IMG/VR virus record: IMGVR_UViG_3300047274_000273
Location: 55,217 to 119,216 of that record
From: a virus
Taxonomy: Duplodnaviria > Heunggongvirae > Uroviricota > Caudoviricetes
Direction: 5' to 3' (one strand)
Length of the DNA stretch: 64,000 nucleotides
The notes below the pieces were generated by a model. It did not search any database. It was not told the origin of the DNA and worked only from the letters and a program-made list of their open reading frames with translations. Shown here piece by piece: positions 7,186 through 54,860 of the stretch (within the stretch, counting starts at the first letter, position 1; each line of letters starts with the position of its first letter). Both the position numbers and the translations under genes were made by a program.

Positions 7186-7187
7186 AA

Positions 7188-11041: not shown

Positions 11042-11194
11042 ATGAGACAGAAAAAGCTCGTAATGGAACTGTACAAGGCTTGCTTCGACCACGACGCCAA
11101 GAAGATGGCAGAACTCAAAAAGATCGAGTTCCAAAAAATCTTGAAACGCAAGGCCGAAGGTAAGCATTTTACACACCGCTGGACCGTTGTTCAG
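11042..11194 (+). CDS. small basic protein (50 aa)
   Basis: Strong SD (aaggagg) 7 nt upstream; below the ORF-track cutoff. Confidence 0.25.
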
Positions 11195-11244
11195 ATATAA
11201 TCGATCTGTAACATCTTAAAACTGATGCTGCGGTAAATACTGCT

Positions 11245-12075: not shown

Positions 12076-12150
12076 CCAGGAACAATGCGAAAAGACATTA
12101 TCAACTATGACATATTGGCTTAAATTTGACAGCTTCAGGATCAAGGGTGA

Positions 12151-13161
12151 ATGCATAAAAAAATCTTAATCATAACAGATAACCTACCGGATCAGATAAA
12201 TGGCGTGGTTACGACCTTTAAGAATATTGAGGCACGTGCTTTTCTGGACGGGCATAGCATTCTATACCTTGATCCCAGGCAGTTCTTACATTTTAGTAGC
12301 CCAGGCTACCCTGAAGTTAAACTTAGCCTTCCTTGGAAGATCGGCAAGAAGATTGAGGCGATGGCTCCGGATTATATACACATCGCCACCGAAGGTCCTA
12401 TTGGTCTGTGTGCTAGACTTTATCTTGACCAACGCGGCTATCGTTACAATACTAGTTACCATACTAAGTTCCCTGAATTTCTAAACAAAATCTACAACAT
12501 TCCTGTGGCATGGACCTACGCATATATGAGATGGTTCCATAAACACAGCGGTAGAGTATTGACCACAACGCAGTCTATGGTCGATGAACTTAGAGAACAC
12601 GGATTCAAGGGAGACATACGGCCCTGGACACGCGGAGTAGATCGAGCTAACCTCAAACCTACTAAGATATATTCTCACAGCGCATACCTACACCTGAAGC
12701 CTATAGTTCTTTATGTGGGCAGAGTCAGCAAAGAAAAAGGTCTAGATGATCTGTGTAGATTGCAAGATGAGTTCTCTATAGAAGTCGTGGGTGACGGACC
12801 TTATAGAGAAGAATTGATGAAAATGTATCCCGGGGTAAAGTTTCTAGGATATCAAACAGGTGCAGAATTGGCCAACAGCTATTCTCGAGCAGATGTATTC
12901 TGCTTTCCTAGCCAGACTGATACATTTGGTATCGTTATCATCGAAGCTCTTAGCCTTGGAACCCCAGTGGCTGCTTATCCCGTGCAAGGTCCTATAGATA
13001 TCTTAGAAACAGGTATCACAGGACACATGAGTTGGGATTTGAAGCAGAGTATAGAGATAGCCAAGCTATACCCTAGAGAGCGAGTAGCAGAAGCCAGCAA
13101 GAAATGGTCTTGGGATGCCTGCTGGCAGATCTTCAAAGAAAATCTTATTCCGCTACGATAG
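12151..13161 (+). CDS. glycosyltransferase, GT-B fold (GT4 family)
   Basis: N-terminal ITDNLPDQINGVVTT and C-terminal EALSLGTPVAAYP motifs typical of GT4. Confidence 0.65.
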   Translation: MHKKILIITDNLPDQINGVVTTFKNIEARAFLDGHSILYLDPRQFLHFSSPGYPEVKLSLPWKIGKKIEAMAPDYIHIATEGPIGLCARLYLDQRGYRYNTSYHTKFPEFLNKIYNIPVAWTYAYMRWFHKHSGRVLTTTQSMVDELREHGFKGDIRPWTRGVDRANLKPTKIYSHSAYLHLKPIVLYVGRVSKEKGLDDLCRLQDEFSIEVVGDGPYREELMKMYPGVKFLGYQTGAELANSYSRADVFCFPSQTDTFGIVIIEALSLGTPVAAYPVQGPIDILETGITGHMSWDLKQSIEIAKLYPRERVAEASKKWSWDACWQIFKENLIPLR

Positions 13162-29805: not shown

Positions 29806-30216
29806 ATGAAAAAATTATTTTGGAACATCTTAGGATTTTTAAGTCTAGGTCTAGCCTATATAGGTTTGATCACCCCGGGTATCCCATACAGTCCGTTTAT
29901 CGTATTCTCTGCTTACTGCTTCAGCAAAGGCAGCGAACGTATGCATCGATGGATCTATAATCACAAGATCTTTGGGCCTTTCCTCACTAACTGGAACGAA
30001 AAGCGTGTATTCCCAACCAAACTAAGATATCTGATGTTGTTTATGATGAGCCTAAGTTTGGTACTAATGTACACAGGGGGAGTCAAACCCATAGGTATCG
30101 CCAGCACTGCTGTATTCATGGCCTTGGTTGCAGTCTGGGCATGGAGATATCCTGCTACCCCCGAAGAGCATGACCAACGTAAACTAGAAGGCAAGAAAAT
30201 TGGCTGGTGGAAATGA
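29806..30216 (+). CDS. inner-membrane protein, YbaN/DUF454-like
   Basis: Two TM pairs and the GIPYSPF motif. Confidence 0.5.
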   Translation: MKKLFWNILGFLSLGLAYIGLITPGIPYSPFIVFSAYCFSKGSERMHRWIYNHKIFGPFLTNWNEKRVFPTKLRYLMLFMMSLSLVLMYTGGVKPIGIASTAVFMALVAVWAWRYPATPEEHDQRKLEGKKIGWWK

Positions 30217-30953
30217 ACCTAGGCTTCTACGGTCACAGTGCCTGTAGATCAAAAAAAGAAAACAGTCACACTAGTTTATTAGCTGATAGATTATCGGCCA
30301 ATATAGTCAATATTGGTGTATCACACGGCAGCGAAGAGCGTATACTCCACGAACTAAAAAAGACCAAAAAGATCGACTTTGCTGTCATATTCCATTCGTA
30401 TCCCTGGTACGTTTACATACTGGATGTAGATCGTGATATCGACATTACGAAAAATATAGAGGAAAAAGCCGAATATTTGTATCCAAGACATTATCGAGAT
30501 TTCGAGAATCCCGAACTCATAGATAAAGACAAACATCCAAAATTTTACAAAAAATATTCAACTGCTATTGAGTTCCAGAATGTAATACAAAACTATAAAC
30601 AAAATTTTTACGATCCAGACCTTTTCAAATATAGATTCGAAGGTGCTGTAATCTCTATAGATTATTATCTCAAATTTAAAAATCTTCCCTGTTATCATAT
30701 TGTCGATCCGGATAAAAATTTCCTACCTTCGTGGTATAAGATACAATCCGGCCCGGTTGACTACGAATTAATGACCTACATCAAATCCAAACAATCTCGG
30801 GGCCCTAATCTAATAAGCAAAGAAGCCAATCAATATGTAGCAGACTATCTTTATGATAAAATTGCGGCCAGTGGTAGAGTGGTGCATACGCCAAATGTCC
30901 AATTTGGAGACGGAGGTTCGAATCCCCCGGCCGCTCCAGCTAACAATGTTTGA
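30207..30953 (+). CDS. hypothetical protein (3' end overlaps a tRNA-Gly-like element)
   Basis: ORF only. Confidence 0.35.
   Translation: MEMNLGFYGHSACRSKKENSHTSLLADRLSANIVNIGVSHGSEERILHELKKTKKIDFAVIFHSYPWYVYILDVDRDIDITKNIEEKAEYLYPRHYRDFENPELIDKDKHPKFYKKYSTAIEFQNVIQNYKQNFYDPDLFKYRFEGAVISIDYYLKFKNLPCYHIVDPDKNFLPSWYKIQSGPVDYELMTYIKSKQSRGPNLISKEANQYVADYLYDKIAASGRVVHTPNVQFGDGGSNPPAAPANNV
30864..30938 (+). pseudogene. degenerate tRNA-Gly(UCC)-like element embedded in a CDS 3' end
   Basis: Canonical T-arm GGAGGTTCGAATCCCCC; acceptor GCGGCC/GGCCGC with discriminator U and CCA; perfect 5-bp anticodon stem around tgTCCaa. The 5' D-stem strand is missing, position 33 is G, and there are A-C mismatches. 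Confidence 0.4.
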
Positions 30954-31377
30954 ATATCTTGATCATTTGCCTAAAATACCCGAACATCTAATAGCGCAGG
31001 TCTATGAATGTTTAGAATCGGATAATCTTTTTTCGAATAAAAAAATACACGGCAAATATGGAACCTATGCTATCACTAACGATCTAGCAGATTGGTTGTC
31101 TACTTTCTTTTCTCGTGAATACATGTTTAAGGTACAGAGAGTGGAAAATGGACTACATGCACACATAGACAAATCTAGACTAGAAGCCTTCAATTATCTA
31201 ATCGATACGGGTGGCCCTGAAGCTGCTCTGTGTTACTATGACAATCTCGGAAATATCACAGCCCAATTTCAAATCGAAGCACACCGCTGGCACAGAATCG
31301 ATGTCACACATCTGCATACTGTAAAACATATCAAAACAACTAGGATAGCCATAACTGTATTCAAACCTCTTGACTAA
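30946..31377 (+). CDS. hypothetical protein
   Basis: ATGTTTGA overlap with the upstream stop. Confidence 0.35.
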   Translation: MFEYLDHLPKIPEHLIAQVYECLESDNLFSNKKIHGKYGTYAITNDLADWLSTFFSREYMFKVQRVENGLHAHIDKSRLEAFNYLIDTGGPEAALCYYDNLGNITAQFQIEAHRWHRIDVTHLHTVKHIKTTRIAITVFKPLD

Positions 31378-32720: not shown

Positions 32721-33065
32721 ATGAGTTTTCTAAGTTTTTTAGGATTTGGTAAAATGGTCAAAGATGGTGCAGAAGTTTTAGAGTTTCCAAAACCCAAGGC
32801 AGTTCCTAAGATGCCCGAAGTTCCACCACCTCCACCAAAAGAAGAGCCTGCTAAAATCTTTTATCGACTAGGAATAACCGATAACAACCGTGTTGCTTTT
32901 AGTATGGGCTACAGTGAAATACTAATGAATAAAGCGGGTTGTCAGCAAATGATTGATCAGATCGCCTTCTTTCAAAGTCAGTTACATGACGAAGGCGGCC
33001 CCTCTGATGATCCCGATGGTGGTTTGCCATTACCGGAAGAAGTTGAACAAGCAAAGGCAGCATGA
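32721..33065 (+). CDS. hypothetical Pro-rich protein
   Basis: ORF only. Confidence 0.35.
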   Translation: MSFLSFLGFGKMVKDGAEVLEFPKPKAVPKMPEVPPPPPKEEPAKIFYRLGITDNNRVAFSMGYSEILMNKAGCQQMIDQIAFFQSQLHDEGGPSDDPDGGLPLPEEVEQAKAA

Positions 33066-33736
33066 TGGGATCTATACTCAGTGACATCTTCGAAAGGATC
33101 GGAGATCTTGAAACGAAACCCCTACATAAGAATCACGGCAAGGCCGTAGATGTTGTAGAGTTTCCTTGTGTACATCGAGATGACAGCGAACCCCTGAGTA
33201 TAATTTGGCCTGATCTTAAACAAGGTCCTTGGCTCGCTGGCGGCGCCTGCCTGCGTTGGTATCAAGGACAGCCTGTGGGAGAAAATGACATTGATATATT
33301 CTGCTCCAGTGCAGAACAGGCACAGAACATCATCGATGATATCAAGAGCTATGGTAGATATTCTATAAAGTATGAAAGCGAAAATGCTACGACGTTGAGT
33401 TACTACAGTAAAGATTCTAATAAGACTTGGACATTACAGATCATCAAGCGTAGATATTTTACCAGCCTAAAAGACATCATCGATAACTTTGATATCTCTG
33501 TCTGCCAAATCGGAACTGCGGGCAATGATTGGTTATTAGGAAAGAATACCGCTCGCGATATTCGTGAGAGAAATCTGCGTATGAACATGCCTTTGCAGCC
33601 TGATGCTGTGAAAAGATTAGCGAAATACTGGACTTATGGTTATCGTCCAGTAGACGGGCTGTTAGATGCTGTTAGGGTGAATCCCATAGGAAAGAAAATG
33701 TTCCAAAGTAACGAGGACTATGAAAATGCGTTCTGA
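33062..33736 (+). CDS. nucleotidyltransferase with CCA-adding/poly(A)-polymerase-type head motif
   Basis: WLAGGACLRWYQGQPVGENDIDIF matches the GGxxR...G...DxDh head motif of class II tRNA nucleotidyltransferases and PAP. Confidence 0.45.
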   Translation: MMGSILSDIFERIGDLETKPLHKNHGKAVDVVEFPCVHRDDSEPLSIIWPDLKQGPWLAGGACLRWYQGQPVGENDIDIFCSSAEQAQNIIDDIKSYGRYSIKYESENATTLSYYSKDSNKTWTLQIIKRRYFTSLKDIIDNFDISVCQIGTAGNDWLLGKNTARDIRERNLRMNMPLQPDAVKRLAKYWTYGYRPVDGLLDAVRVNPIGKKMFQSNEDYENAF

Positions 33737-34115
33737 ACAATCATGGAGCCTTCTAGATCCGAAACCAGTGATGCTGTATCTTTCCAATCTAGATGAATAC
33801 ATCGTATATTGGAACGGTATCGCCACTACACATCTAATGGCTTTAAATTTAGCCATGGAGTATTATGGTATCTTTCCTACCCCTGAAATGAAATCAGCTA
33901 TGGAGCAAAACTACAGCAAGATTTACTATGCGAATGGTTTCAATACAAGAGCATGGGATCTTAAAGTATCCAGTTCGCCAATTTATCCCTATGTGAAAAG
34001 GCTGTTGGCAGAACACTGTAAAAAAGTGATTGACGAATCGGGTCGAGATATTTCTGAAGTTTTAGGCTGGTTCGATTACAGTCGAGCAAGAAAAGAACAA
34101 TGCGCTGATAGCTAA
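33720..34115 (+). CDS. hypothetical protein (3' end overlaps the tRNA by 14 nt)
   Basis: ORF only. Confidence 0.35.
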   Translation: MKMRSEQSWSLLDPKPVMLYLSNLDEYIVYWNGIATTHLMALNLAMEYYGIFPTPEMKSAMEQNYSKIYYANGFNTRAWDLKVSSSPIYPYVKRLLAEHCKKVIDESGRDISEVLGWFDYSRARKEQCADS

Positions 34116-34177
34116 ATGGAACAGCAGGAGCCTCTAAAACTCCAGATGCGTGGGTTCGATTCCCACTCAGCGCACCA
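34102..34177 (+). tRNA. tRNA with anticodon CUA (candidate amber suppressor), CCA encoded
   Basis: 76 nt. 7-bp acceptor stem GCGCUGA/UCAGCGC; U8; A14, G18, G19, A21; anticodon loop cuCUAaa with U33 and A37; T-arm GTGGG-TTCGATT-CCCAC; discriminator A; 3' CCA. One mismatch each in the D and anticodon stems; 6-nt variable loop. Confidence 0.6.
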
Positions 34178-34298
34178 GAGCAGCGAGACTATCACAACCT
34201 CAGTATGAGTCGCTAAGGTAGGCGCCTAATCCTTAGGGCAAGCAACAGTACGAAATTGTGAGTGGCACCTCGGAACTAGACGGGGCATAGGATTTAAA

Positions 34299-34550
34299 AT
34301 GGCAGCATTAATGTTTAAAACTAAAGAAGAAGCGCAGGCCTGGATCCGTTCAATTATGGGTCCTCCTAAGCGTATTCTCCATGGCGAAGAACACGATCGG
34401 GTTTGGTTGATGTTGCAGATGACAGAACCTGTTAGAGAAACTAACAATCAGCATAGTTGGTGTGCTGAATACAACGTTGGCGGAATTATGTATGATGTAC
34501 ATTATTTCCCAAACGAAGAACCTTTTATTGAGCAGTATCTAAATGATTGA
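34299..34550 (+). CDS. hypothetical protein
   Basis: ORF only. Confidence 0.35.
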   Translation: MAALMFKTKEEAQAWIRSIMGPPKRILHGEEHDRVWLMLQMTEPVRETNNQHSWCAEYNVGGIMYDVHYFPNEEPFIEQYLND

Positions 34551-35104: not shown

Positions 35105-35839
35105 ATGATGTATGAATCAAAGCTCGCCGCGGCAATCAAAGTAGACGGTAAAGTCCTAAGAGAATTCAAGGACACAGTACATATCCCATTTGGCAGTGAA
35201 TATACAATCCTACTTAAGAACCTTAATACGACCCGTGCTGTCGTTAATGTTTTTATCGATGGTAACGATATGGTCCCTGGTGGACTTGTACTGGATCCTG
35301 GCAGAGAAGTCGACCTCGAACGATCGGTCAAGAACGGCAATCTCACAGAAGGCAATCGATTCAAGTTTATCGAACGCACAGGGAGTGTGGAAAAGCACAG
35401 GGGAATCGGTATTGAGGACGGACTGGTAAGAATCGAGTTCCAGTTCGAACAACCACCACGTCCTATCCTTTGGAATACTTCTAATATCAACAGTATCTAT
35501 CCGCAGGGCGGAATCCTTCGCGGTGTGAACGATGTTCATTACGGTGTGACTTGTTCTACAGCCAGCTATGATGCTACTTCTGTGAACAGCAGCCACTCGT
35601 TGTTAAACGATGTTGGTATCACTGTTCCCGGTAGTCACAGCACACAGAAGTTTTCAACTGCCTATGTTGGCGTACTAGAAAGTGTCAAACACTCAATGGT
35701 GTTCAAACTTTTCGGTGGTACTATGCCAAAACCGATTACAGTTAAGCACAAACCAAAATGTGTGACCTGCGGCAAGCAGAACAAAGCTACCAGCAAGTTT
35801 TGCCAAGAGTGCGGTACTGCTCTTGAAATATTCGCATAA
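35105..35839 (+). CDS. hypothetical protein with C-terminal zinc-ribbon
   Basis: SD aaggag; C-terminal CVTCG...CQECG double Cys pair. Confidence 0.4.
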   Translation: MMYESKLAAAIKVDGKVLREFKDTVHIPFGSEYTILLKNLNTTRAVVNVFIDGNDMVPGGLVLDPGREVDLERSVKNGNLTEGNRFKFIERTGSVEKHRGIGIEDGLVRIEFQFEQPPRPILWNTSNINSIYPQGGILRGVNDVHYGVTCSTASYDATSVNSSHSLLNDVGITVPGSHSTQKFSTAYVGVLESVKHSMVFKLFGGTMPKPITVKHKPKCVTCGKQNKATSKFCQECGTALEIFA

Positions 35840-36030
35840 GTAGTATATAATGAAAAGCATACGACACGGCACAGCAGCAGCCAACTCAAAGTTGCGTGGT
35901 CGTAAGACCGCGATGCTAACCTGCCGTTGTTGTATGCTGATTAATTTCAAACACGAAGAACGTGTAAAAGAAGCCAAAACTGACATAAGGAGATATCAAA
36001 ATGGCCTAGATTGAATATGCTTGTAAGGAC

Positions 36031-36561
36031 GTGGTGTTCCATTTCAACAAAAAACACCTAGAGGACCAAACCATACCTATGTGGGTCCTAAAAACACATG
36101 GGGAATCATTTTACGTCAATCACGTGACCTGCGAGATACCTTGGACTACCAAGGAAACGCCAGACAACTCGCATACCAAAGGCAGTATCAAAGTCAAAGA
36201 TTGTCTATTGACAATTGACGAAGAAAACTCTGCTACTATCAGTAATCTTTCAGTATTTGATAAAATCCGCTTACGCAACCAAAAGTTGGGTATCACTAGG
36301 ATAATCTTCTCTTGGGGATCCAAGATGCATACAGCTCTAGCCGGAAACGAGTTCAAACACAGTCCTTTCAAGAATGTTGAAGGAGGCTGTGGAACTAGTT
36401 TCGTTATCTGCGATCTACTAAAGAAAGAAGAAGCTACATTAGCAGCGTTGAAATATCCAAACTGTTGGCGTGTTCTCAAACCAAATGAGGCCTACTATCA
36501 GCGATACGATCAGAAAGGCACGATTTGGGAAGATGAAGATCTTGACGAGGATGACGAATGA
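36031..36561 (+). CDS. hypothetical protein
   Basis: ORF only. Confidence 0.35.
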   Translation: MVFHFNKKHLEDQTIPMWVLKTHGESFYVNHVTCEIPWTTKETPDNSHTKGSIKVKDCLLTIDEENSATISNLSVFDKIRLRNQKLGITRIIFSWGSKMHTALAGNEFKHSPFKNVEGGCGTSFVICDLLKKEEATLAALKYPNCWRVLKPNEAYYQRYDQKGTIWEDEDLDEDDE

Positions 36562-36587
36562 GTGTTAAATAACTGTATTGCTGTATG

Positions 36588-36899
36588 AAGCAAAGAGAAA
36601 AGTGTTCTGGACGCGGGTTCGATTCCCGCCCGGTCCACCAGAAAGAATTCTTCACCCTGTATAGAGACAGACAAGTGCTATAGACTATACTAAAGAGTTC
36701 TTTCTAATGGGCCGGACCTGGTTTCGACAGGGCAAAGAGTAACAGAGTGGACAGCAGGGTAGGCGATGACCCTAAATCAAGCAAAACTATAACTGCAAAC
36801 GCAGCTAATGACGAGGTTTACGCTCTAGCAGCCTAAACTTCCGGGGCAGGTATGCCTTGTAACCAAAAATACCAAAGCGGCTCTTGTGGCCGCTTTTTC
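36588..36899 (+). ncRNA. ssrA: two-piece (circularly permuted) tmRNA: acceptor piece upstream, coding piece with tag ORF downstream, intrinsic terminator
   Basis: 36607-36640 GGACGCGGGTTCGATTCCCGCCCGGTCCACCA is nearly identical to the E. coli tmRNA 3' end (T-arm, 3' acceptor, CCA). 36709 GGGCCGGACCTGGTTTCGACAGGG is the tmRNA 5' end-like, forming G3:U70 with the upstream acceptor strand. Tag reading frame 36795-36836 reads GCAAACGCAGCUAAUGACGAGGUUUACGCUCUAGCAGCCUAA (..ANDEVYALAA stop). Terminator at 36876-36899. Confidence 0.8.
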
Positions 36900-36927
36900 T
36901 TGACTTTTACTGATAGTTTGTTATATA
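36900..36927 (+). promoter_or_regulatory. sigma70-like promoter TTGACT-16-TATATA
   Basis: Sits directly after the tmRNA terminator in a 200-nt AT-rich region upstream of ahpC. Confidence 0.45.
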
Positions 36928-46805: not shown

Positions 46806-48695
46806 ATGTCTAAGATCATCGGTATTGACCTCGGCACCACCAACTCATGCGTGGCTATCGTCGAGAACGGAACTTCCAAAGTTATTGAAAATTCAGAAGG
46901 TGCAAGAACTACACCTAGTATCGTTGCCTATGCTAATGATGAAATCCTCGTAGGCGCATCAGCCAAGCGTCAAGCAGTAACTAATCCTAAAAATACAATC
47001 TATGCGGCCAAGCGACTAATTGGTCGTAAGTTCAAAGAACAGGCTGTACAAAAAGATATCGATCTCATGCCATATGAAATCATGGAAGCCAAGAATGGCG
47101 ATGCATGGGTTAGAGCACAGGGCAAAGAACTAGCCCCTCCACAGATTTCCGCAGAAGTCCTTCGCAAGATGAAGAAGACCGCAGAAGATTATCTTGGTAC
47201 TACAGTTACTCAAGCAGTCATTACTGTTCCTGCGTACTTTAATGATCAACAACGTCAGGCGACCAAAGATGCAGGACAGATCGCAGGATTAGAAGTACTG
47301 CGTATCATCAACGAGCCAACCGCGGCCGCTCTAGCTTACGGTGTTGATAAGGAATCAAAAGGCGATCGCAAGATCGCAGTCTATGACCTAGGTGGTGGTA
47401 CATTTGACGTTTCGATTATTGAAATCGCGAATGTTGATGGTGATAAGCAAATCGAAGTATTGTCTACAAACGGTGACACTTTCCTGGGCGGTGAAGACTT
47501 TGACCAACGTATCATGGACTACTTGGTCGACGAATTCCGTAAAGAGCAGGGAGTGGATCTAACCAAGGACATGTTAGCTTTACAACGACTCAAAGATGCT
47601 GCTGAAAAAGCTAAGATTGAATTATCTAGCAGCACACAAACAGAAGTTAATCTTCCATATATCACAGCAGATGCCAACGGTCCTAAGCACTTAGTAGTCA
47701 AGTTGTCCAAAGCTAAACTAGAAAGCCTAGTTGACGATCTAATCCAACGCTCATTAGAGCCTTGCCGCATCGCTATGAAAGATGCAGGTGTTACTGCCGC
47801 TGACATCGACGAAGTTATTCTTGTTGGCGGTCAGACACGTATGCCTAAGGTACAAGAAGAAGTTGAGAAGTTATTTGGTAAAGCACCACGTAAAGATGTG
47901 AATCCAGACGAAGCAGTGGCTGCGGGCGCTGCTATCCAAGGTGCTGTTCTTGGCGGTGACCGCAATGATGTTCTATTACTAGATGTTACACCATTGAGCC
48001 TAGGTATTGAAACACTGGGCGGTGTAATGGCTAAGATCATCCAGAAGAATACAACTATTCCTACTAAGGGACAACAAACATTTTCTACAGCAGAAGATAA
48101 TCAACCTGCGGTAACTATCAAGGTTTTCCAGGGTGAACGTGAACTCTGTCAGCACAATAAGCTCTTGGGCGAATTTAATCTAGAAGGCATCGCTCCGGCA
48201 CGTCGCGGCCAGCCTCAGATCGAGGTTGCTTTTGATATCGATGCCAATGGTATCATGAATATCAGTGCCAAGGACAAGAGCACAGGTAAAGAAAATAAGA
48301 TCACTATCAAGAGCGACAGCGGTCTGAGCAAAGAACAGATCGAGCAGATGATTCGCGATGCTGAAGCTAATGCAGAAGCAGATAAGAAATCCAGAGAGCT
48401 TATTGAAGCTAAAAATCAAGCAGAGTCTACAGTTCACGAAGTGAAGCGTGATATGGAAGAACTCAAGGATGATCTCAGTGATGCCGAAAAGGCTGAAATT
48501 GAATCTGCGATCGCAGCCGTTCAAGAAGCAGCCAAGACAGACGACACAGACAAGATCAAATCCGAGCTTGAAAAAGTTTATCCGGCAATGAAAACATTGT
48601 TGGAAAAAAAGCAGGCCAAAGAGCAATCACAGGCTCAACCTGCTGGTACAGATGATAATGTAGTCGATGCTACCTTTACGGAGAAAAAAGACTAA
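46806..48695 (+). CDS. dnaK: chaperone DnaK (Hsp70)
   Basis: [21 protein letters not shown], full-length 629 aa with C-terminal lid. Confidence 0.95.
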
Positions 48696-48701
48696 TTATC
48701 A

Positions 48702-48750
48702 TGTTTAGGGGTACCTACGGGGCCCTAATTGTTCTTACTTTATAAGGAGA
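48702..48750 (+). promoter_or_regulatory. conserved heat-shock-type promoter/leader cassette upstream of hsp20
   Basis: TGTTTA-N14-GCCCTAAT-N4-CTTACTTTATAAGGAGA. Confidence 0.45.
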
Positions 48751-48755
48751 CTATT

Positions 48756-49190
48756 ATGAACAATCAACTCGCAAGACTAGATGCTCTGAACAGAGCTCTT
48801 ATTGGTTTCGACACCATGTTCGACCAAATGGAACGCCGTTTCGCTAACAGCGTTAATAATAACTATCCCCCACACAACATCCTACGTTTGGCTGACAATG
48901 AATATGCCATTCAACTGGCTGTCACGGGCTTTGATAAAAGCGAAATTTCAGTGACTATTGAAAACAACGTTCTAGTTGTCAAGGGTGAAAGCATGACCAC
49001 TGATTATGCTGCTGAACAATATCTACACCGTGGACTAGCTACCCGAGACTTTGTCAAGGAATTTTCTCTTGCAGAGCACATCGAAGTAGCAGGCGCAGAA
49101 ACTAAGAACGGTATGCTAACCATTAAGTTGATTAGAAACATTCCAGAATCTGCCAAACCGCGTGTCGTTGATATCGTAGAGGTTAAGTAA
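48756..49190 (+). CDS. small heat-shock protein (Hsp20/IbpA family)
   Basis: Alpha-crystallin domain (YAIQLAVTGFDKSEISV...LLVVKGE). Start moved to 48756 to sit behind the SD. Confidence 0.8.
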   Translation: MNNQLARLDALNRALIGFDTMFDQMERRFANSVNNNYPPHNILRLADNEYAIQLAVTGFDKSEISVTIENNVLVVKGESMTTDYAAEQYLHRGLATRDFVKEFSLAEHIEVAGAETKNGMLTIKLIRNIPESAKPRVVDIVEVK

Positions 49191-49194
49191 ATAT

Positions 49195-49216
49195 ATATGG
49201 GGGCAAAGCCCCCATA
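49195..49216 (+). terminator. GC-rich hairpin between hsp20 and clpS (possible attenuator or weak terminator)
   Basis: atgggggc-aaa-gcccccat, but with a poor U-tract. Confidence 0.35.
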
Positions 49217-49233
49217 TCATCGAAGGAGAACTT

Positions 49234-49536
49234 ATGAGCACTGAAATCCAATTTGATGAAAAGGTAAAGGTTGGTCTTCAACCGCCTAAGATGTGGAAGG
49301 TCATTTTTCTTAATGACGATCACACTCCCATGGAATTTGTCATGGAATTGCTAACTTCTATTTTCAGACACAGTGAAGAAGAAGCTAGGACGATAACTCT
49401 AGAAATCCACAATTCGGGCAGCGCAGTTGTTGGAGTTTATACTCACGAGATTGCTGAGCAGCGAGGTCTTGAATCTACACAATTAGCTAGAAGTAATGGA
49501 TTTCCGTTGAGAATCACTCTTGAACAAGAGCAATGA
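49234..49536 (+). CDS. clpS: ATP-dependent Clp protease adaptor ClpS
   Basis: PKMWKVIFLNDDHTPMEFVMELL...AEQ aligns with ClpS (P.MYKV.L.NDD.TPM.FV). Confidence 0.85.
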   Translation: MSTEIQFDEKVKVGLQPPKMWKVIFLNDDHTPMEFVMELLTSIFRHSEEEARTITLEIHNSGSAVVGVYTHEIAEQRGLESTQLARSNGFPLRITLEQEQ

Positions 49537-49793
49537 CCTTTGACGATGTAAAACTTATTAAACATCAAAGCACAGGCGCAAGAAAATTTGGTTACTGGGT
49601 TCATTTTAGAGACCAACGCCCGCATCATCTATCTGTGGGTGTAGCCGGAAAAAAATCAATCAGAAAATTTTTAGAGACAAGCCTTGGTCCTATGGGACAA
49701 AAATGGCAGTATGAAAAGTTCAATCAATTTGATTATTTTATCAAATTAGACAACGAAAAAGATCTCTTATTTCTCATCCTCAAGTTTAAGTGA
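49533..49793 (+). CDS. hypothetical protein
   Basis: ATGA overlap with the upstream gene. Confidence 0.35.
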   Translation: MTFDDVKLIKHQSTGARKFGYWVHFRDQRPHHLSVGVAGKKSIRKFLETSLGPMGQKWQYEKFNQFDYFIKLDNEKDLLFLILKFK

Positions 49794-49809
49794 TAGTAAA
49801 TAACTCACT

Positions 49810-50367
49810 ATGAATCTAAAAGAACTCACTCACGAACAACACAGAAGGGCCGAAACTCGTCCTTTTGTCAAGGTACTATTTTCAGGTAATGTAAATCCTA
49901 AGATTTATGCGACCTATCTAAAAAATCAGCATCCTATGTACGAAATCTTAGAAGTCTGTGCCATGCCGCATGGACTACTAAATGGACTATCCGAAATACG
50001 CAGAGCACCGGCGATACTCGAGGATTTCTCCGAACTATGGGGAGATTCAGATGAAAAGCCATATATGTGTCCTGTAGTAGATGATTATATCAAATACATT
50101 CTCGGTATCAAGGATAACCCAGAAAAATTAATGGCACATATCTATGTTCGTCATATGGGAGATCTCAGCGGCGGACAGATGATAGCTAAACGTGTTCCCG
50201 GTACCGGTAAGTATTATCAATTCGGCGATTCTCCGGAAAAGATCAAAGAAGCTATCAGATCAAAACTAGATGATAGTATGGCTGAAGAAGCCAAAGTCTG
50301 CTTTGATTTTGCCGCTAGATTTTTCGACGAAATGATGGAAGTGGTAAAATTATATGACACAGAGTAA
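49810..50367 (+). CDS. heme oxygenase
   Basis: LKELTHEQHRRAETRPFVK...NPKIYATYL: the heme-oxygenase N-terminal proximal helix with conserved His. Confidence 0.7.
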   Translation: MNLKELTHEQHRRAETRPFVKVLFSGNVNPKIYATYLKNQHPMYEILEVCAMPHGLLNGLSEIRRAPAILEDFSELWGDSDEKPYMCPVVDDYIKYILGIKDNPEKLMAHIYVRHMGDLSGGQMIAKRVPGTGKYYQFGDSPEKIKEAIRSKLDDSMAEEAKVCFDFAARFFDEMMEVVKLYDTE

Positions 50368-51040
50368 GGTCTGGGATACACTGATAGAAATACAAACTCT
50401 ATTAGAAGATTCTTTTAACCGCACAGGTAAAGAAGTATTCGAGCCAGGAATGGATCGTTTCAATCAGCCGGGTTGGGTAAATCGTGTCTGGACCAGTGAC
50501 AGTTATCGTAGAGCTCATATCGATGTAGTCGATGCCCGATCCACAAAGGGCCTTTGGATGATGCACTGCTGTATCTTCCCACATATCCATAACCCGGCAC
50601 CCATATTTGGTTTTGATGTTATCGCAGGTAAGAACAAAATCACAGGTTGTTTTCATGATTTTAGTCCCGCAGGTGATAGCGAGCATCACCTAATCGATTG
50701 GTTCGCAGATGAAGCCAGTAGATTAGAGTGGAATAAAACCCGTAAACTTCCCGAGTGGGCGGAGCGTATTTTTACAGGTAGTATGATAGCTGCCGGTAAT
50801 GTACAAGATGAAGCTGAACTAGAACAGCTCACAGATCTTGTAAAATTAACCACTAAAGTCTATCTACAGCACGTGGGCGATACGAATCATACTGCAAAGA
50901 ATACTACCTTTAATCAAAATTTCTACGCCCAAAATCAAAAAATGAATCCTCATACTCCTAAAGTAATGGCTAGCCTAGGCCTGAACGAAGAGGATGTACA
51001 GGTGTTTATACAGGATTGTCTGTTCCCAGAGATCCGATAA
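50354..51040 (+). CDS. ferredoxin-dependent bilin reductase (PcyA/PebS/PcyX family)
   Basis: FDBR family layout with central GFDVIAG and conserved His/Asp positions (HIDVVDA, HDFSPAGD). Overlaps the ho gene by 14 nt. Confidence 0.7.
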   Translation: MTQSKVWDTLIEIQTLLEDSFNRTGKEVFEPGMDRFNQPGWVNRVWTSDSYRRAHIDVVDARSTKGLWMMHCCIFPHIHNPAPIFGFDVIAGKNKITGCFHDFSPAGDSEHHLIDWFADEASRLEWNKTRKLPEWAERIFTGSMIAAGNVQDEAELEQLTDLVKLTTKVYLQHVGDTNHTAKNTTFNQNFYAQNQKMNPHTPKVMASLGLNEEDVQVFIQDCLFPEIR

Positions 51041-51050
51041 ATACTCTGTT

Positions 51051-52427
51051 ATGAGATTTTTTGAATTTAATCTACACGAGTCATCTAGAGGAATCCTATT
51101 TCGTACAGTAGGAGATCCCTTTAAATCCACTGCGGACCCTAATAAAACACTGACCTATGCAGGATCGCAGACATTTCCCGCCCCAGTTCCGGGCCAAGGT
51201 GCAGCTCAATTTCCCGATCCTGAAACATTTAATCAAGAAGTCGCTGCTGCTGAAAAAAAGTTTCCGGGGATCACATGGACTAATAAATCAAATGCTTCGA
51301 TGCGAGCATTTGCTGTGGTTACCTTAGACGATCCTGTCGCAAAGAAGAAGGTACATTTTGGTAGATTTTTCAAAGAAATATCACCGGACATGGCAGGTAA
51401 ATGGAAAAATGACGGTATACCCGGATATAGTCTAGAAATTAAATCTTCAAAGAAATCTAGATCGGGTCTTAAGCCCAACGATCTAATTCCATTAGGGCAG
51501 CAATTTCCAAACCCACAGGCACTTATAGAAGCTCTAAAACCAGATTTAGATCCTGCTATCAAAGCAGGATTGACAATGATAGTTGAAAAGAAACTACCAG
51601 TGTTTAATGTTGATGCTAGCATGGAAGCAGCTATTAGAGATGACCTAGGGGAAATAATCGCTCCCATGGCACTATGGCAAGGCATGATATCTGCAGAAGC
51701 AGAGTCAGCTAGAAAGTTTTTGTTGAAAACAACACCATGGAGTGCCTGTGCTATAACATTTTCATCAACTAAGAATGCAGGCTTGATTGATAGCTATGTT
51801 AAACCTCCAAAAGGCGTAGCTGTTGGTATTTCTAGTAAGGGTGCAGAAGGAGCTAAGGCATCTGCATCGAACATATGGGCAGGTGTTGAATTGCTACGTT
51901 CTACAGGACAACAAGATGTTGTCGATCAATACCCAGAAGCTGTTCATGTATTAGAAATGATCAAGCGAGAATCTCAATACCGAGGACCTATGGTACTAGG
52001 TACAGAATATGGTTTTCTTACTGGTCAAGACGAAACATTGATCAACCAGGCAATCAAGCAGGGAATGCAAAAACTACCTCCAGGACCAGAATGGGAAAAC
52101 ATAGGTGCATTAATGAAAAAATTTGCTCCTAGAGACATGTCTAAATCTAACTATAACATAGGGTATCATGCTCTTGCCGGATTGGCAAAAATGGTACAAG
52201 AAAAAGTCAACAGTAGTGTTCCAAAGTTTAGTGAAGCGTGTATAACATTCCTAAATAGTTCTCCATTATTACAGATACATCTGTATACCAAAGCATCCGG
52301 TAATACTGTTTCAGTAACCGGTTTCAAAACAATATGGCCTCCACAGTTCAAAGGATCCGTATCTCTCAATGCCGGCAAGAGTTATTATGCTACCGGTGTC
52401 ATAAACAAGTTCGCGTTTAGTTGGTAG
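51051..52427 (+). CDS. hypothetical protein with MRFFEF N-terminus
   Basis: Start chosen at ATGAGATTTTTTGAATTT, identical to the start of the ORF at 21901. Confidence 0.4.
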   Translation: MRFFEFNLHESSRGILFRTVGDPFKSTADPNKTLTYAGSQTFPAPVPGQGAAQFPDPETFNQEVAAAEKKFPGITWTNKSNASMRAFAVVTLDDPVAKKKVHFGRFFKEISPDMAGKWKNDGIPGYSLEIKSSKKSRSGLKPNDLIPLGQQFPNPQALIEALKPDLDPAIKAGLTMIVEKKLPVFNVDASMEAAIRDDLGEIIAPMALWQGMISAEAESARKFLLKTTPWSACAITFSSTKNAGLIDSYVKPPKGVAVGISSKGAEGAKASASNIWAGVELLRSTGQQDVVDQYPEAVHVLEMIKRESQYRGPMVLGTEYGFLTGQDETLINQAIKQGMQKLPPGPEWENIGALMKKFAPRDMSKSNYNIGYHALAGLAKMVQEKVNSSVPKFSEACITFLNSSPLLQIHLYTKASGNTVSVTGFKTIWPPQFKGSVSLNAGKSYYATGVINKFAFSW

Positions 52428-52497
52428 TCTATATCTAGTGTTATAATTTTTTCAACCCGCTCAGTAAATACTAATACCGTTTACCGGGAGCGAAAAG

Positions 52498-52953
52498 ATG
52501 AAAAAATTGATAGCTGTGGCCATGGTTGCCTCTATGGCCGTTTCTGCACACGGAGCAGAAATAGTACATCAGTTCAATAGCCCTTCTTTTTCTGGAATAG
52601 GCTTCTCTAGTCATACGTTGACAATCTATTCCCAGGAACTAAGTAGAAAATTAGCTATTGCCGCTGAAAAAAAGGCAGAAGAGTTAAAAGCAGAGCAAGA
52701 TGCTAAAAATACCACACAGGCCAAGTTTATTGCGAACTTAGAAAGTAGGGTATACAACGAACTTGCACGTCAAATCACAGAAAAACTGTTCGAAGGAACA
52801 GGCACACAAGTCACTGGAACCTTCGCGTTCAACGGTGGCACCATTCGTTATACAAAAACAGGTAACGAAATAACCATAACAATAACAGGTGCAGACGGAA
52901 GTGTAACTACCATGACTGTGCCAGTAGGAGACTTCGGATGGCTAGCACCTTAA
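52498..52953 (+). CDS. csgF: CsgF-like curli assembly protein
   Basis: Signal peptide; mature N-terminus IVHQFNSPSFSG versus E. coli CsgF TMTFQFRNPNFGG; similar length. Confidence 0.55.
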   Translation: MKKLIAVAMVASMAVSAHGAEIVHQFNSPSFSGIGFSSHTLTIYSQELSRKLAIAAEKKAEELKAEQDAKNTTQAKFIANLESRVYNELARQITEKLFEGTGTQVTGTFAFNGGTIRYTKTGNEITITITGADGSVTTMTVPVGDFGWLAP

Positions 52954-54149
52954 TGAAACTTACACCGATAGCACTGGCTATCACACTAACTGGCTGTGGA
53001 ACAATAGGCAATGCTGTCCGATCATTTGACGAGCCTACTGTAACTAAACCTACACTAAAAGTAGAATCAACCTTAAAAGAACCGGCTGCTGGGGCTATCG
53101 CCATAGCTGTCTACAACTTCCGTGATATGACTGGCCAGCGTAAGGCCAGCCAAAACATTGCCAGCCTTAGTTCGGCTGTAACACAAGGTGCAGATGCTTA
53201 CCTTGTTAAGAGCCTACAAGAAGTAGGTGGCGGTCGTTGGTTCAAAGTATTAGAAAGAGGTGGATTAGATAATCTGGTCAAAGAACGTCAGCTTATCCGT
53301 CAAATGCGCGAACTGTATCAAGGTAAAGATGCACAGCCTTTACCTCCTATGCTGTTCGCTGGAATCATATTAGAAGGCGGTATTATCGGCTATGATTCTA
53401 ACACAATGAGCGGCGGATCCGGTGCTAGATTCCTAGGCATTGGCGCTTCTACAGAATATCGACAGGACGAAGTTACTATCAGCCTACGAGCAGTTTCAGT
53501 AGCCACTGGAGAAGTTCTAGTGACTGTGAACACAAACAAAAAAGTCTACAGTTTTCAAGACAAGCTAGGAGTTTTGCGTTTTGTAGATGCCGGAACACAA
53601 GCACTGGAGTTAGAAACAGGTTCTGCTACTAACGAATCTATGAACAAAGCGGTACAATTAGCCATACATGCTGCGGTCATAGAACTTATTAACTCTGGAG
53701 CAGGAAAAGGTCATTGGGCATTTAAATCCGATGTTGCTGCGGCACCTCAGCCAAGACCAGAACCTGTGGTTGTAAAAGAGGAGGAGGTAAAGAAAGATGA
53801 GTTGGTTCAAAAGGACTCCGCACCTAAAGAAGAAAAAATTGAAGCACCTGCGACACCCGCAGTACCACAACCCGATGACAGAAAAACTGTTACAGAAGAG
53901 CCAGCAAGAACAGAATCAAAAAACACAGACACAAACACAGTAATAACCGTGCAGCCTAAAGTTACTTTAGGAAATGTCACAGATTGGGTAAACGTAAGAA
54001 AAGAACGCGATATAAACAGCGAAAAGTTAGCCAATCTTAGGCCTGGAACGCAAGTAGAAGTACTTGATACTAAAGGCGATCACTACGTTGTTAGAGTCAA
54101 CGGAAAGGAAGGTTATGTAGTAAGAAAATTTATTAAGGTACAAAAATAA
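52938..54149 (+). CDS. csgG: CsgG-like curli secretion channel lipoprotein with C-terminal SH3b domain
   Basis: Lipobox LTGCG. IAVYNFRDMTGQ, LERGGLDNLVKERQLIR, GGIIGYDSNTMSGGSGARFLGIGAS and ISLRAVSVATGEVL align with E. coli CsgG. C-terminal VNVRKERD...GTQVEVL...YVVR is SH3_3-like. Confidence 0.8.
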   Translation: MASTLMKLTPIALAITLTGCGTIGNAVRSFDEPTVTKPTLKVESTLKEPAAGAIAIAVYNFRDMTGQRKASQNIASLSSAVTQGADAYLVKSLQEVGGGRWFKVLERGGLDNLVKERQLIRQMRELYQGKDAQPLPPMLFAGIILEGGIIGYDSNTMSGGSGARFLGIGASTEYRQDEVTISLRAVSVATGEVLVTVNTNKKVYSFQDKLGVLRFVDAGTQALELETGSATNESMNKAVQLAIHAAVIELINSGAGKGHWAFKSDVAAAPQPRPEPVVVKEEEVKKDELVQKDSAPKEEKIEAPATPAVPQPDDRKTVTEEPARTESKNTDTNTVITVQPKVTLGNVTDWVNVRKERDINSEKLANLRPGTQVEVLDTKGDHYVVRVNGKEGYVVRKFIKVQK

Positions 54150-54176
54150 CAATAACAGTACCACGGAGCGAAGAAA

Positions 54177-54860
54177 ATGATCAAAAATAATTATAAAATG
54201 GCTTTCATTATGGCGGCCATATTTGCCGGTTCAGGATCAGTTCAGGCAAACAACGGAGTCTATATTGAACAAGTAGGTTCCACAAACACAGTTACTATCA
54301 CTCAAATAGGCGCTAATAATAGAGTGGGTAACAGCGGTTTAAATCAACAGAGTAAAATTACAGGCAGCAACAACACATTGACTGCTAGCCAAACAGGCGA
54401 CGGAAATATCATAGACTACACAGTAATAGGCAGCGGCAACACTATTACTAAAACTGTAGCAGGAGATACCAATCAAATCACCTTTATCTGCGGCGATGGA
54501 ACAACCAGCTGTAGTAATGTGACCAGCACCATGACACTCACTGGTAATCAAAATACTGTTACTAGTACGATCAAAGGTTCTTCGATCACTAACATGTTGT
54601 CTATCACCGGTGACAGCAATACTGTAACACAGACTATCACTACCAACAATAGCACTAGTTCTATTACTATCCTAGGCGACAGTAATACCTTTACTAGTTC
54701 GATGACTGGTGCCAGCGCAGGCGCAGGACATCATTTGCTGGCGTCTGTTACAGGTACCAGCAATACCCATACTATTACACAGAGCGGTACCGTGAATACC
54801 ACGGTTAATGTTACCACCAATGGTAACAGCAATAATGTAACTGTAAGTACTGGAAACTAA
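54177..54860 (+). CDS. curlin-repeat protein (CsgA/CsgB-like amyloid subunit candidate)
   Basis: Signal peptide, then repeats of T-x-T-Q-x-G-x-x-N type (VTITQIGANN, LTASQTGDGN, HTITQSGTVN). Confidence 0.55.
   Translation: MIKNNYKMAFIMAAIFAGSGSVQANNGVYIEQVGSTNTVTITQIGANNRVGNSGLNQQSKITGSNNTLTASQTGDGNIIDYTVIGSGNTITKTVAGDTNQITFICGDGTTSCSNVTSTMTLTGNQNTVTSTIKGSSITNMLSITGDSNTVTQTITTNNSTSSITILGDSNTFTSSMTGASAGAGHHLLASVTGTSNTHTITQSGTVNTTVNVTTNGNSNNVTVSTGN

Follow-up and report, generated by a model that had tools for sequence, protein, structure and literature searches.

Suppressor tRNAs of phages are usually explained by code switching. Lone suppressor tRNAs for which no target was identified have been described in large phages that use the standard code, including a UCA tRNA in Atu_ph07 (PMC6102473) and a UUA tRNA in phiKp24 (PMC8386662). 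The Xanthomonas jumbo phage XacN1 carries two CUA suppressor tRNAs, and in silico readthrough of its 18 TAG stops gave nothing and uncovered no hidden homology, a puzzle that was reported by its authors in 2018 (PMC5852040). The tRNA gene described here represents a further instance of this known phenomenon: it belongs to a suppressor lineage that has been kept where no signal of recoding was found, and of which XacN1 and Xoo-sp13 are two cultured carriers.

In the window (the whole 64-kb stretch of phage DNA that was analysed), ARAGORN called a tRNA gene with anticodon cta at 34102-34177 on the + strand, and the Rfam model RF00005 matched 34102-34174 over the full model (positions 1-71) with 59.0 bits (gathering score, 29 bits; E=3.3e-10 for the whole window). 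The gene is 76 nt long and encodes its CCA. Its anticodon CTA (34134-34136, + strand), which reads UAG, lies in a 7-nt loop, C-U-CUA-A-A, at 34132-34138, and the RF00005 alignment likewise puts CUCUAAA in the 7-nt anticodon loop, confirming the register proposed before. The 7-bp acceptor stem (GCGCUGA/UCAGCGC) is separated by two nucleotides, U8 and A9, from a D stem of GCU/AGC with an A13.C22 mismatch, which closes a 7-nt D loop (AAUGGAA) containing G18 and G19. The anticodon arm (34127-34143, + strand), GGAGC-CUCUAAA-ACUCC, comprises the stem GGAG/CUCC with a C31.A39 mismatch (34131 and 34139) and the loop C32-U33-C34-U35-A36-A37-A38, with U33 present and a purine at position 37. These are followed by a variable loop of 6 nt, a T arm of GUGGG-UUCGAUU-CCCAC, the discriminator A73 and the encoded CCA. 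The 76-nt CUA cloverleaf described in the earlier note is therefore borne out by ARAGORN, by RF00005 and by direct reading of the sequence, with the correction that the D stem has only three Watson-Crick pairs and the anticodon stem four pairs plus a mismatch. The reported overlap with the upstream gene also holds, as the TAA (34113-34115) of the listed 131-aa ORF at 33720-34115 (+ strand) lies within the first 14 nt of the tRNA. The window gene is thus a real tRNA gene with an anticodon reading UAG.

We collected 50 distinct CUA tRNAs of the same lineage from contigs of uncultured T4-like phages and from the Xanthomonas jumbo phages XacN1 and Xoo-sp13, and the anticodon CUA is invariant in all of them. 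Among related contigs, IMGVR_UViG_3300027804_000039 (191 kb) has a tRNA that departs from the window tRNA at a single base. The combined pattern of anticodon arm and T arm was matched by 35 IMG/VR contigs, and the anticodon arm with a loosened T arm, searched with a 15-nt solid block, had no match in 185,579 bacterial and archaeal species genomes. In a search made without the anticodon, through the neighbouring protein encoded at 36031-36561 (loci fetched at 43-95% identity), a CUA tRNA was present at 35 of 37 syntenic loci, and a tRNA with another anticodon at none. Among 31 aligned homologues, 91.9% of stem cells were paired, compared with 78% in shuffles and 32-43% in slid controls, and 16 of the 21 pairs varied on both sides; these measures exceeded those of all 500 shuffles and of all slid controls. 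The acceptor stem was 99.5% paired with both sides varying in all seven pairs, compensatory changes were present in all four stems, and U33-C-U-A-A37 and the T loop were invariant. Pair 31:39 was non-standard in 28 of these homologues and never G:C or C:G, while the other anticodon-stem pairs were kept. Some family members have strongly reduced D arms and were missed by ARAGORN. Judged from these alignments, the family has been kept by purifying selection in a large clade of T4-like aquatic phages with the standard code, and by its sequence the window tRNA is a member of a phage-only lineage kept across many large aquatic phages. The previous description of the gene as a candidate amber suppressor that reads UAG has gained strength from the invariant CUA of the 50 homologues and from their covarying stems.

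The CUA lineage probably descends from a phage tRNA-Lys. In a comparison with 211 phage tRNAs, 24 of 47 family members were closest to tRNA-Lys, and the mean identity of the family to tRNA-Lys was 0.72, compared with at most 0.69 for other types; the top matches of the window tRNA itself (Gly, Met and Lys at 0.73-0.74) do not discriminate among types. The XacN1 suppressor is 82% identical to the tRNA-Lys(UUU) of Xoo-sp13, and the Xoo-sp13 suppressor has the D arm, anticodon stem, variable loop and T stem in common with that same tRNA-Lys(UUU). In E. coli, CUA tRNAs are charged by LysRS or GlnRS, with A31-U39 favouring Lys and C31-G39 lowering Lys acceptance approximately 100-fold (PMC1483225). 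The window tRNA has lost U34 and U36, but carries the LysRS determinants U35 and A73; since these two are the main determinants and a weak 31:39 pair favours LysRS, LysRS is the likeliest synthetase. However, G1:C72 and C2:G71 of the window tRNA are unlike the typical acceptor stems of tRNA-Lys, which start with GGG. Charging with lysine by a synthetase of the host is probable on the grounds of similarity and of the E. coli rules. In addition, contig L020, which carries a CUA tRNA, has a DNA ligase gene that is intact over 442 codons save for one in-frame TAG, at a position encoded as AAG or occupied by Lys in relatives, which may serve as an anecdote for Lys insertion.

Under code 11, 93% of the window is coding; its GC content is 42%, and its 101 ORFs end in TAA (60), TGA (30) or TAG (11). 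TAG is indeed the stop of the ORFs that end at 743, 11005, 12075 and 13161, in agreement with the observation in the earlier note that TAG is used as an ordinary stop, and TAG accounts for 10.9% of stops in the clade and 8.6% in late regions. Across the 64-kb window, no sizeable pair of ORFs is joined by an in-frame TAG, and the endolysin-like ORF has no interruption. In 1.2 Mb of related loci, in-frame stops inside conserved alignments comprised one credible TAG, compared with one TGA and three TAA. Because the gp23 bait of Melnitz gave marine Melnitz-like contigs only, late regions were taken with the clade's own capsid gene; stringent matches in 0.88 Mb around this major capsid gene comprised five TAG, four TGA and two TAA, all five TAG cases having weak flanking identity. 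These head-gene regions are 87% coding under code 11 when only ORFs of at least 80 aa are counted, and in tRNA-bearing relatives both the capsid protein and the prohead protease can be aligned to those of Melnitz without a break (396 and 161 residues, respectively). No domain of RF2, another release factor or a synthetase was found in the approximately 50 of about 100 window ORFs that were scanned with Pfam or PHROGs. Accessory code-change genes of this kind (RF2 or a dedicated synthetase) are not universal in recoded phages. The sequence covered for this phage itself amounts to 64 kb plus about 10 kb, of which approximately 9.6 kb to the left of the window, found by exact-protein look-up, contains DNA ligase and ClpP-like genes and lacks late genes; the same kind of look-up gave no record that extends the right end. 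The earlier suggestion that the suppressor is dedicated to late TAG-containing genes as part of a stop-recoding strategy is not supported, as no TAG-split gene was present in the window, in the 1.2 Mb of relatives or in the 0.88 Mb of head regions. The alternative offered in that note, a tuning of readthrough, may apply, although orthologues do not conserve the TAG stops of window genes. The phage uses the standard code, with no sign of recoding in the sequence covered. In redundant data, a second stop follows within three codons in 17% of TAG genes, compared with 27-32% of TAA and TGA genes, and this paucity of backup stops fits weak suppression or harmless extensions without revealing a purpose.

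Given that the phage keeps the standard code, we favour, with moderate confidence, the explanation that the CUA tRNA is a functional elongator-type tRNA pairing with UAG, specific to phages and probably derived from tRNA-Lys, which would suppress UAG in general, and probably only in part, and would not be needed to unlock a recoded set of genes. As no convincing promoter was found immediately 5' of the tRNA, it is probably processed from a longer + strand transcript, and it would be transcribed along with the surrounding early or middle genes of that strand. The transcript would then be trimmed by host RNase P and 3' nucleases, with the CCA already encoded, and charged by a host synthetase, most likely LysRS. 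The charged tRNA would compete with release factor 1 at UAG in the infected cell, which may place short C-terminal extensions on UAG-terminated phage and host ORFs and allow amber mutations in phage genes to be tolerated. Against this explanation, activity might be reduced by the C31.A39 mismatch and the 3-bp D stem, and general suppression offers no obvious benefit strong enough for strict conservation over deep divergence.

It is unlikely that the tRNA instead serves programmed readthrough, yielding C-terminally extended isoforms or fusions of one or a few specific UAG-ended phage genes. About 10% of genes end in TAG, and in-frame extensions are somewhat longer after TAG genes than after TAA and TGA genes. 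However, the TAG stops of window genes are not conserved, as the stop switches freely among TAG, TAA and TGA in every TAG-terminated window gene with orthologues, and nothing was found beyond the 18 TAG stops of XacN1 (PMC5852040). Several related loci have a conserved TAG-ATG junction at which a 206-212 aa ORF is in frame with a 457 aa late-promoter gene; a readthrough fusion was rejected here because a separate start codon, a ribosome-binding site and a TATAAATA late promoter are present at the junction, which therefore looks like ordinary adjacent genes. The only long post-TAG extension in the window, of 64 codons, follows the TAG at 11003 (ORF end 11005) and fills a 240-nt gap. Programmed readthrough was rejected here as well, because the 52-aa ORF at 11043-11201 is an independent gene, with a ribosome-binding site (AAGGAGG), a TATAAATA motif and homology to separate ORFs in other frames in relatives, and because the stop of the upstream gene varies among orthologues (TAA 31, TAG 14 and TGA 11). 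The four consecutive TAG-ended genes at 9138-13161, a run of host-like metabolic genes (GATase-like, metallophosphoesterase and GT4), do not form a readthrough cluster, since their orthologues use other stops. Similarly, the fragmented-looking ORFs with TTG starts at 39.8-43 kb are separate small genes in different frames, and no TAG-split gene was found among them.

The neighbourhood of the tRNA bears on a role in termination bypass or ribosome rescue, to which we assign a low probability, whereby the tRNA and a tmRNA, perhaps with a neighbouring protein, would keep ribosomes moving when RF1 termination or mRNA integrity fails through host defence, a toxin or phage takeover. A permuted two-piece tmRNA with the tag ANAANDEVYALAA was identified by ARAGORN and Rfam at 36528-36898 (+ strand), 2.4 kb downstream of the tRNA (tmRNA_permuted, 138 bits; beta_tmRNA, 134 bits), and a CUA tRNA is likewise found within a few kb of a permuted tmRNA in XacN1 and many related contigs (approximately 16 of 42 syntenic loci). 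The ORF at 36031-36561 (+ strand) encodes a conserved 176-aa protein, connected to the CUA tRNA by association only as its usual neighbour in related phages; the two stay adjacent despite other rearrangements, and a sigma-70-like promoter at 35823-35851 precedes both this ORF and the tmRNA. However, tmRNA is common in this phage group in the absence of a suppressor: Melnitz carries a tmRNA but lacks a suppressor tRNA, and a tmRNA is present in 17 of 47 related contigs (PMC9004378). A cassette common to XacN1 and the window was considered and rejected, as the tmRNAs match in their conserved cores only and the flanking proteins are unrelated. Moreover, Atu_ph07 encodes the N-terminal domain of the neighbouring protein at a site near which no tRNA is annotated, the fold of the protein does not point to any function, and linkage within one clade may be inherited gene order. 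On the other side of the tRNA, the ORF at 33720-34115 had no family or solved-structure match, and neither this ORF nor that at 33062-33736 gave an informative match or evidence for a CCA-adding enzyme. Rfam gave no match in the spacer at 34178-34300, which has a folding z-score of +0.42 and therefore contains no ribozyme or second RNA.

A more elaborate form of this idea, which we consider quite improbable, is that the CUA tRNA, the 176-aa protein and the permuted tmRNA constitute a conserved module overriding host control of termination. The tRNA would bypass RF1-dependent termination at UAG, and the tmRNA would clear the stalled ribosomes that result from this bypass or are induced by nucleases, either countering a host defence that acts on termination or serving a takeover step that does so. 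In that case, the conserved non-Watson-Crick pair 31:39 would have evolved to fix charging (Lys rather than Gln) or decoding strength.

That the gene does not decode at all is very unlikely. It would then be a decaying paralogue of tRNA-Lys or a tRNA-like RNA, for example a decoy for an anticodon nuclease directed at tRNA-Lys, which is a known target of such nucleases; the C31.A39 mismatch, the 3-bp D stem, the reduced D arms of some members and the resemblance of the body to tRNA-Lys agree with this. However, decay is incompatible with the invariance of CUA, U33, A37 and the T loop and with the compensatory changes in all four stems, and the family has retained the acceptor stem, discriminator and CCA, as would be expected if the tRNA is charged. 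From a decoy, moreover, one would expect retention of the UUU anticodon loop recognised by these nucleases.

A switch of TAG to sense, in which the tRNA would let TAG-interrupted late or lysis genes elsewhere in the genome be translated as in code-15 phages, has only a faint chance of being correct. There is a strong association between suppressor tRNAs and recoded phages, and some relatives of these phages that use the standard code carry suppressors as presumed intermediates (bioRxiv 10.1101/2021.08.26.457843); in addition, the sequence seen is part of this genome, and the ligase gene of one relative contains an in-frame TAG. Against this stand the high code-11 coding density of the window and head-gene regions, the use of TAG as a normal stop in the window, the clade and late regions, and the finding that in-frame TAG is no commoner than TGA or TAA in 2 Mb of clade sequence including capsid neighbourhoods. 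The endolysin-like gene is whole, the ORFs scanned lack RF2 and synthetases, and the GC content is not the low GC linked to recoding.

A pyrrolysine tRNA, which has virtually no likelihood and to which only the CUA anticodon and the compact D arms of a subset of relatives point, is refuted on structural criteria, because tRNA-Pyl is characterised by a 6-bp anticodon stem, a 3-nt variable loop, a small D loop that lacks G18-G19, the absence of a T-psi-C loop, a single nucleotide separating the acceptor stem from the D stem, and PylRS as its partner, whereas the window tRNA has a 5-position anticodon stem, a 6-nt variable loop, G18 and G19, a canonical UUCGAUU T loop, two nucleotides between these stems and A73, with no PylRS-like or other synthetase domain in the ORFs scanned. 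The label 'Pyl' arose because ARAGORN names every CTA anticodon so, and 'tRNA-Pyl' in its output should be read as a naming default only. By the same token, a CTA tRNA alone should not trigger gene calling under code 15.

Collectively, these results sharpen the question of what benefit a stop-reading tRNA confers on a phage that still uses that stop. The family alignment, the conserved 31:39 mismatch, the testable prediction of Lys and the two cultured carriers provide handles for experimenters.

Among known systems, the suppressors of Atu_ph07 and phiKp24 read other stop codons (opal and ochre, respectively) and belong to tRNA lineages unrelated to the window tRNA. The laboratory suppressors of E. 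coli and T4, including supE, supF, tRNA-Lys(CUA) constructs and T4 psu1+, act by the mechanism proposed here, competing with RF1 at UAG, and the anticodon loop CUCUAAA of the window tRNA is that of supF-type suppressors. These are recent single-step mutants of sense tRNAs, whereas the window lineage is old, conserved and phage-specific, with a fixed CUA and a non-Watson-Crick 31:39 pair. A73-bearing CUA tRNAs of E. coli tend to be charged by LysRS or GlnRS (PMC1483225), and the window tRNA has A73. The code-15 phages (crAss-like, Lak and others) likewise combine a phage-encoded CUA tRNA, a host synthetase and competition with RF1, but in those phages alone many late and lysis genes contain in-frame TAG, code-11 density is low, Gln insertion is predicted and RF2 is sometimes present (bioRxiv 10.1101/2021.08.26.457843); the window tRNA appears to be of the Lys and not of the Gln type (G1:C72, A73 and A38). 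The closest known relatives are the tRNA-Sup(CUA) genes of XacN1 (AP018399, two tandem copies) and Xoo-sp13 (MN047793), which belong to the same lineage as the window tRNA according to blastn matches, the sequences and the alignment. They differ in the acceptor stem, in an 8-nt D loop (AGCGGUCA) compared with the 7-nt AAUGGAA, and in C13:G22 in place of A13.C22. The window phage has a single copy in an auxiliary-gene region of a T4-like, Kyanoviridae-related backbone, compared with the two tandem copies of XacN1 and the terminal-repeat tRNA arrays of both Xanthomonas jumbo phages, and the permuted tmRNA lies about 1 kb from the CUA tRNA in XacN1 and 2.4 kb in the window. All share the identical arm core GAGC-CUCUAAA-ACUC, C31.A39, the T stem GUGGG/CCCAC and, save for one XacN1 copy with G73, A73. 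Like the window phage, XacN1 and Xoo-sp13 use the standard code, with TAG still a stop.

ARAGORN placed three RNA genes on the plus strand of the window. Two are tRNAs, one for Gly (tcc; 30864-30938) and one whose anticodon is cta (34102-34177); the third is a permuted tmRNA (36548-36927), also detected with Rfam. The Rfam tRNA model scores 59.0 bits over 34102-34174, well above its gathering score of 29 (E=3.3e-10 in a scan of all Rfam families), and its alignment, independent of ARAGORN, places CUCUAAA in the anticodon loop. The cloverleaf comprises an acceptor stem (GCGCUGA/UCAGCGC), U8, A9 and A26, a D stem GCU/AGC in which A13 and C22 are mismatched, a 7-nt D loop (AAUGGAA), an anticodon stem GGAG/CUCC with C31.A39, an anticodon loop C-U-CUA-A-A (anticodon at 34134-34136), a 6-nt variable loop (AGAUGC), a T arm (GUGGG-UUCGAUU-CCCAC), A73 and an encoded CCA. 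Caller, covariance model and cloverleaf agree on the CUA-tRNA described in the earlier note, as does the overlap reported there between its 5' end and ORF 33720-34115, whose TAA stop falls within the first 14 nt of the tRNA. It has the features of a tRNA, the anticodon loop of an amber suppressor and those of the lineage found in the Xanthomonas jumbo phage XacN1; it lacks those of tRNA-Pyl, a label that is merely the ARAGORN default name for CTA. The tRNA-Gly(UCC) scores just 33.4 bits against a cutoff of 29, with acceptor-stem mismatches. ORFs 30207-30953 and 30853-31377 both extend over it, which makes one or both of these ORF calls doubtful.

Among deposited phages, blastn with the window tRNA matched the tRNA-Sup of XacN1 and a site without annotation in Xoo-sp13, another cultured Xanthomonas jumbo phage. 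XacN1 carries two tandem CUA tRNAs, followed after about 1 kb by a permuted tmRNA; Xoo-sp13 carries a single CUA tRNA. In IMG/VR, 35 contigs, some of 140-340 kb, contain the exact anticodon-arm and T-arm pattern, a tRNA(cta) is called at nearly all of these sites, and one related tRNA (L019) differs from that of the window by a single base. Because this pattern fixes CUA in advance, the search was repeated with a neighbour protein as bait, encoded downstream of the tRNA by ORF 36031-36561 (+; 176 aa). Across loci in which this protein is 43% to 95% identical, a CUA tRNA lies upstream in 35 of the 37 having upstream flank, including two with reduced D arms missed by ARAGORN, and none of the 37 has another anticodon at the tRNA position. 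None of 185,579 species genomes of bacteria and archaea contains an exact match to the anticodon arm combined with a loosened T arm. In an alignment of 31 family sequences, 91.9% of cells are paired, 16 of 21 pairs show two-sided changes, all seven acceptor pairs covary, and neither the 500 shuffles nor the slid controls reach the observed value of any covariation measure. Pair 31:39 is non-standard in 28 of these sequences, mostly C.A; A.C, C.C and A.A occur in further members, and G:C or C:G never occurs in the family. The family-wide conservation, the covariation and the invariant CUA indicate a functional RNA under purifying selection, in which the UAG-reading anticodon itself is kept, and lead us to reject a decaying paralogue.

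Reduced D arms were observed in L003 (5652-5772), L004, L013, L017, L025, L101 and L133, and also in L012, L036, L132, L136 and L138, all related uncultured phage contigs; the reduced form is exemplified by a 5-bp stem, a 3-5 nt loop and a single nucleotide after the acceptor stem, giving a tRNA of 72-74 nt. Several such members escape ARAGORN, and the family will be undercounted by surveys based on tRNA finders.

The earlier note had proposed that the tRNA serves TAG-containing late genes elsewhere in the genome. No substantial ORF pairs are joined by TAG in the 64-kb window, and the sole long extension beyond a TAG turns out to be a small gene of its own. Stop codons there comprise 60 TAA, 30 TGA and 11 TAG, and the stop alternates among TAG, TAA and TGA in the orthologues of every TAG-terminated gene that has any. 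TAA accounts for 60%, TGA for 29% and TAG for 11% of the stops in related loci totalling 1.2 Mb, where stops inside well-conserved alignments amount to one credible TAG, one TGA and three TAA, leaving out one noisy query that yielded all three kinds. In one subclade, a gp23-like capsid protein and a prohead protease adjoin the tRNA, and they align uninterrupted over 396 and 161 residues to those of the Methylophilales phage Melnitz. In the surroundings of the clade's capsid gene (80 loci, 0.88 Mb), 87% is covered by code-11 ORFs of at least 80 aa, TAG makes up 8.6% of stops, and stringent in-frame stops number five TAG, four TGA and two TAA, with weak flanking identity at all five TAG. TAG usage, 10% here, is only modestly lower than the 14-16% of Melnitz-like phages, which have no suppressor. 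For XacN1, its authors found nothing beyond 18 TAG stops (PMC5852040). Neither the window tRNA nor its genome context has the properties of a code-15 system, and specific programmed readthrough found no positive evidence in the window or the relatives' loci. With TAG in normal use as a stop, genes intact, capsid proteins uninterrupted, and TAG inside relatives' genes weak or matched by TGA and TAA, recoding is not supported by the loci surveyed, namely those of the relatives and the window, a small part of the phage's own genome.

A conserved TAG-ATG junction places a 206-212 aa ORF in frame with a 457-aa gene in L009, L015, L027, L115, L121-L124 and L003. A ribosome-binding site and a TATAAATA late promoter serve the 457-aa gene itself; were an amber suppressor active, readthrough of the junction would give some fusion protein. 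At window 9138-13161, four consecutive TAG-ending genes with unusually wide spacers encode host-like metabolic proteins (an uncharacterised 376-aa protein, a GATase/BPL_N-like protein, a metallophosphoesterase and a GT4 glycosyltransferase); the orthologues end in other stop codons, and the segment is probably an acquired island. It contains an unlisted 52-aa ORF at 11043-11201 (+) with a ribosome-binding site (AAGGAGG), preceded at 11011-11018 by the T4 late-promoter-like motif TATAAATA and kept as a separate small gene in relatives.

As for amino acid identity, the short variable arm excludes the bacterial Ser, Leu and Tyr types, G3:C70 excludes Ala, and G1:C72, A73 and A38 do not match the published E. 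coli GlnRS identity rules. When 47 family members were compared, with the anticodon masked, with the sense tRNAs encoded on the same phage contigs (211 distinct sequences), 24 came closest to tRNA-Lys; the window tRNA alone gives a weak signal, with Gly, Met and Lys all at 0.73-0.74. The XacN1 suppressor is 82% identical to tRNA-Lys(UUU) of Xoo-sp13, which shares its D arm, anticodon stem GGAG, variable loop and T stem with the Xoo-sp13 suppressor. E. coli CUA suppressors are misacylated reciprocally by LysRS or GlnRS (Fukunaga et al., PMC1483225), A31-U39 favouring Lys and C31-G39 cutting Lys acceptance about 100-fold while slightly favouring Gln (PMC1483225); the family's avoidance of G:C pairs at 31:39 is compatible with a Lys-accepting tRNA. 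In one anecdotal case, the 9.4-kb contig L020, which carries a CUA tRNA, encodes a DNA ligase (6429-7751) with a single in-frame TAG at 6795, where relatives have AAG or Lys; nothing else interrupts the gene over 442 codons, and it is 74% identical to the ligase of this phage. A tolerated amber mutation, variation within the population or an assembly error could each account for the TAG. Lysine is tentatively predicted as the likeliest amino acid on the window tRNA, with confidence a little short of even.

With no convincing promoter or terminator flanking it and only two T4-type late-promoter motifs (TATAAATA) in the whole window, the tRNA probably matures from a polycistronic transcript of the early or middle class; the 121-nt spacer on its 3' side has neither an Rfam match nor unusual folding. 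A strong sigma-70-like promoter (11/12) at 35823-35851 precedes ORF 36031-36561 and the tmRNA, a permuted two-piece RNA (36528-36898, +) with tag ANAANDEVYALAA (Rfam tmRNA_permuted, 138 bits; beta_tmRNA, 134 bits) that overlaps the 3' end of this ORF, an arrangement resembling that described for Melnitz. The neighbour protein belongs to a family of 1306 members, has no Pfam or informative fold match, and remains adjacent to the tRNA across several rearrangements. That tRNA, neighbour protein and tmRNA act as a functional module is only a hypothesis, because Atu_ph07 also encodes the N-terminal domain of the protein, without an annotated tRNA close to it, and in this phage group a tmRNA is often present where there is no suppressor (PMC9004378).

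The GC content of the window is 42% throughout. Coding sequence, mostly on the plus strand, takes up 93% of it under the standard code, and none of 50,697 deposited phages matches it closely at the DNA level. Its gene content includes both ribonucleotide reductase subunits (large and small), AhpC and CMD peroxidases, GMP reductase, an endolysin-like protein, a DnaK-like chaperone (65-67% identical to bacterial DnaK), heme oxygenase with bilin reductase, a virion protein 50% identical to one of cyanophage S-RIM32, and a CsgG/FecR/F5-8-type-C/cyclase module shared with Melnitz and Pelagibacter phage HTVC008M (cyclase identity, 44% and 35%, respectively). Judged by these genes, the window belongs to a T4-like aquatic myophage and represents its auxiliary-gene region. 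Auxiliary genes are abundant at 46806-60788, and also at 1-4465 together with the overlapping contig L139; a heptose- or sugar-nucleotide-like set comprises HAD/PNK3P, cytidylyltransferase, PfkB, epimerase and aminotransferase genes. No aminoacyl-tRNA synthetase or release-factor domain was found in the about 50 of roughly 100 ORFs scanned, which included all of at least 250 aa but three, for which Pfam annotation was taken from L139.

Collectively, the new elements are how broadly and strictly the CUA tRNA is conserved among uncultured T4-like phages, the 31:39 mismatch that the family keeps and its probable Lys-like ancestry. The window tRNA bears on the open question of suppressor tRNAs in standard-code phages. 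In recoded phages, suppressor tRNAs go with in-frame stops (bioRxiv 10.1101/2021.08.26.457843). Lone suppressor tRNAs in standard-code large phages are already documented, each unexplained, namely the CUA suppressor of XacN1 (PMC5852040), the UCA suppressor of Atu_ph07 (PMC6102473) and the UUA suppressor of phiKp24 (PMC8386662), and the window tRNA is not unprecedented beside them.
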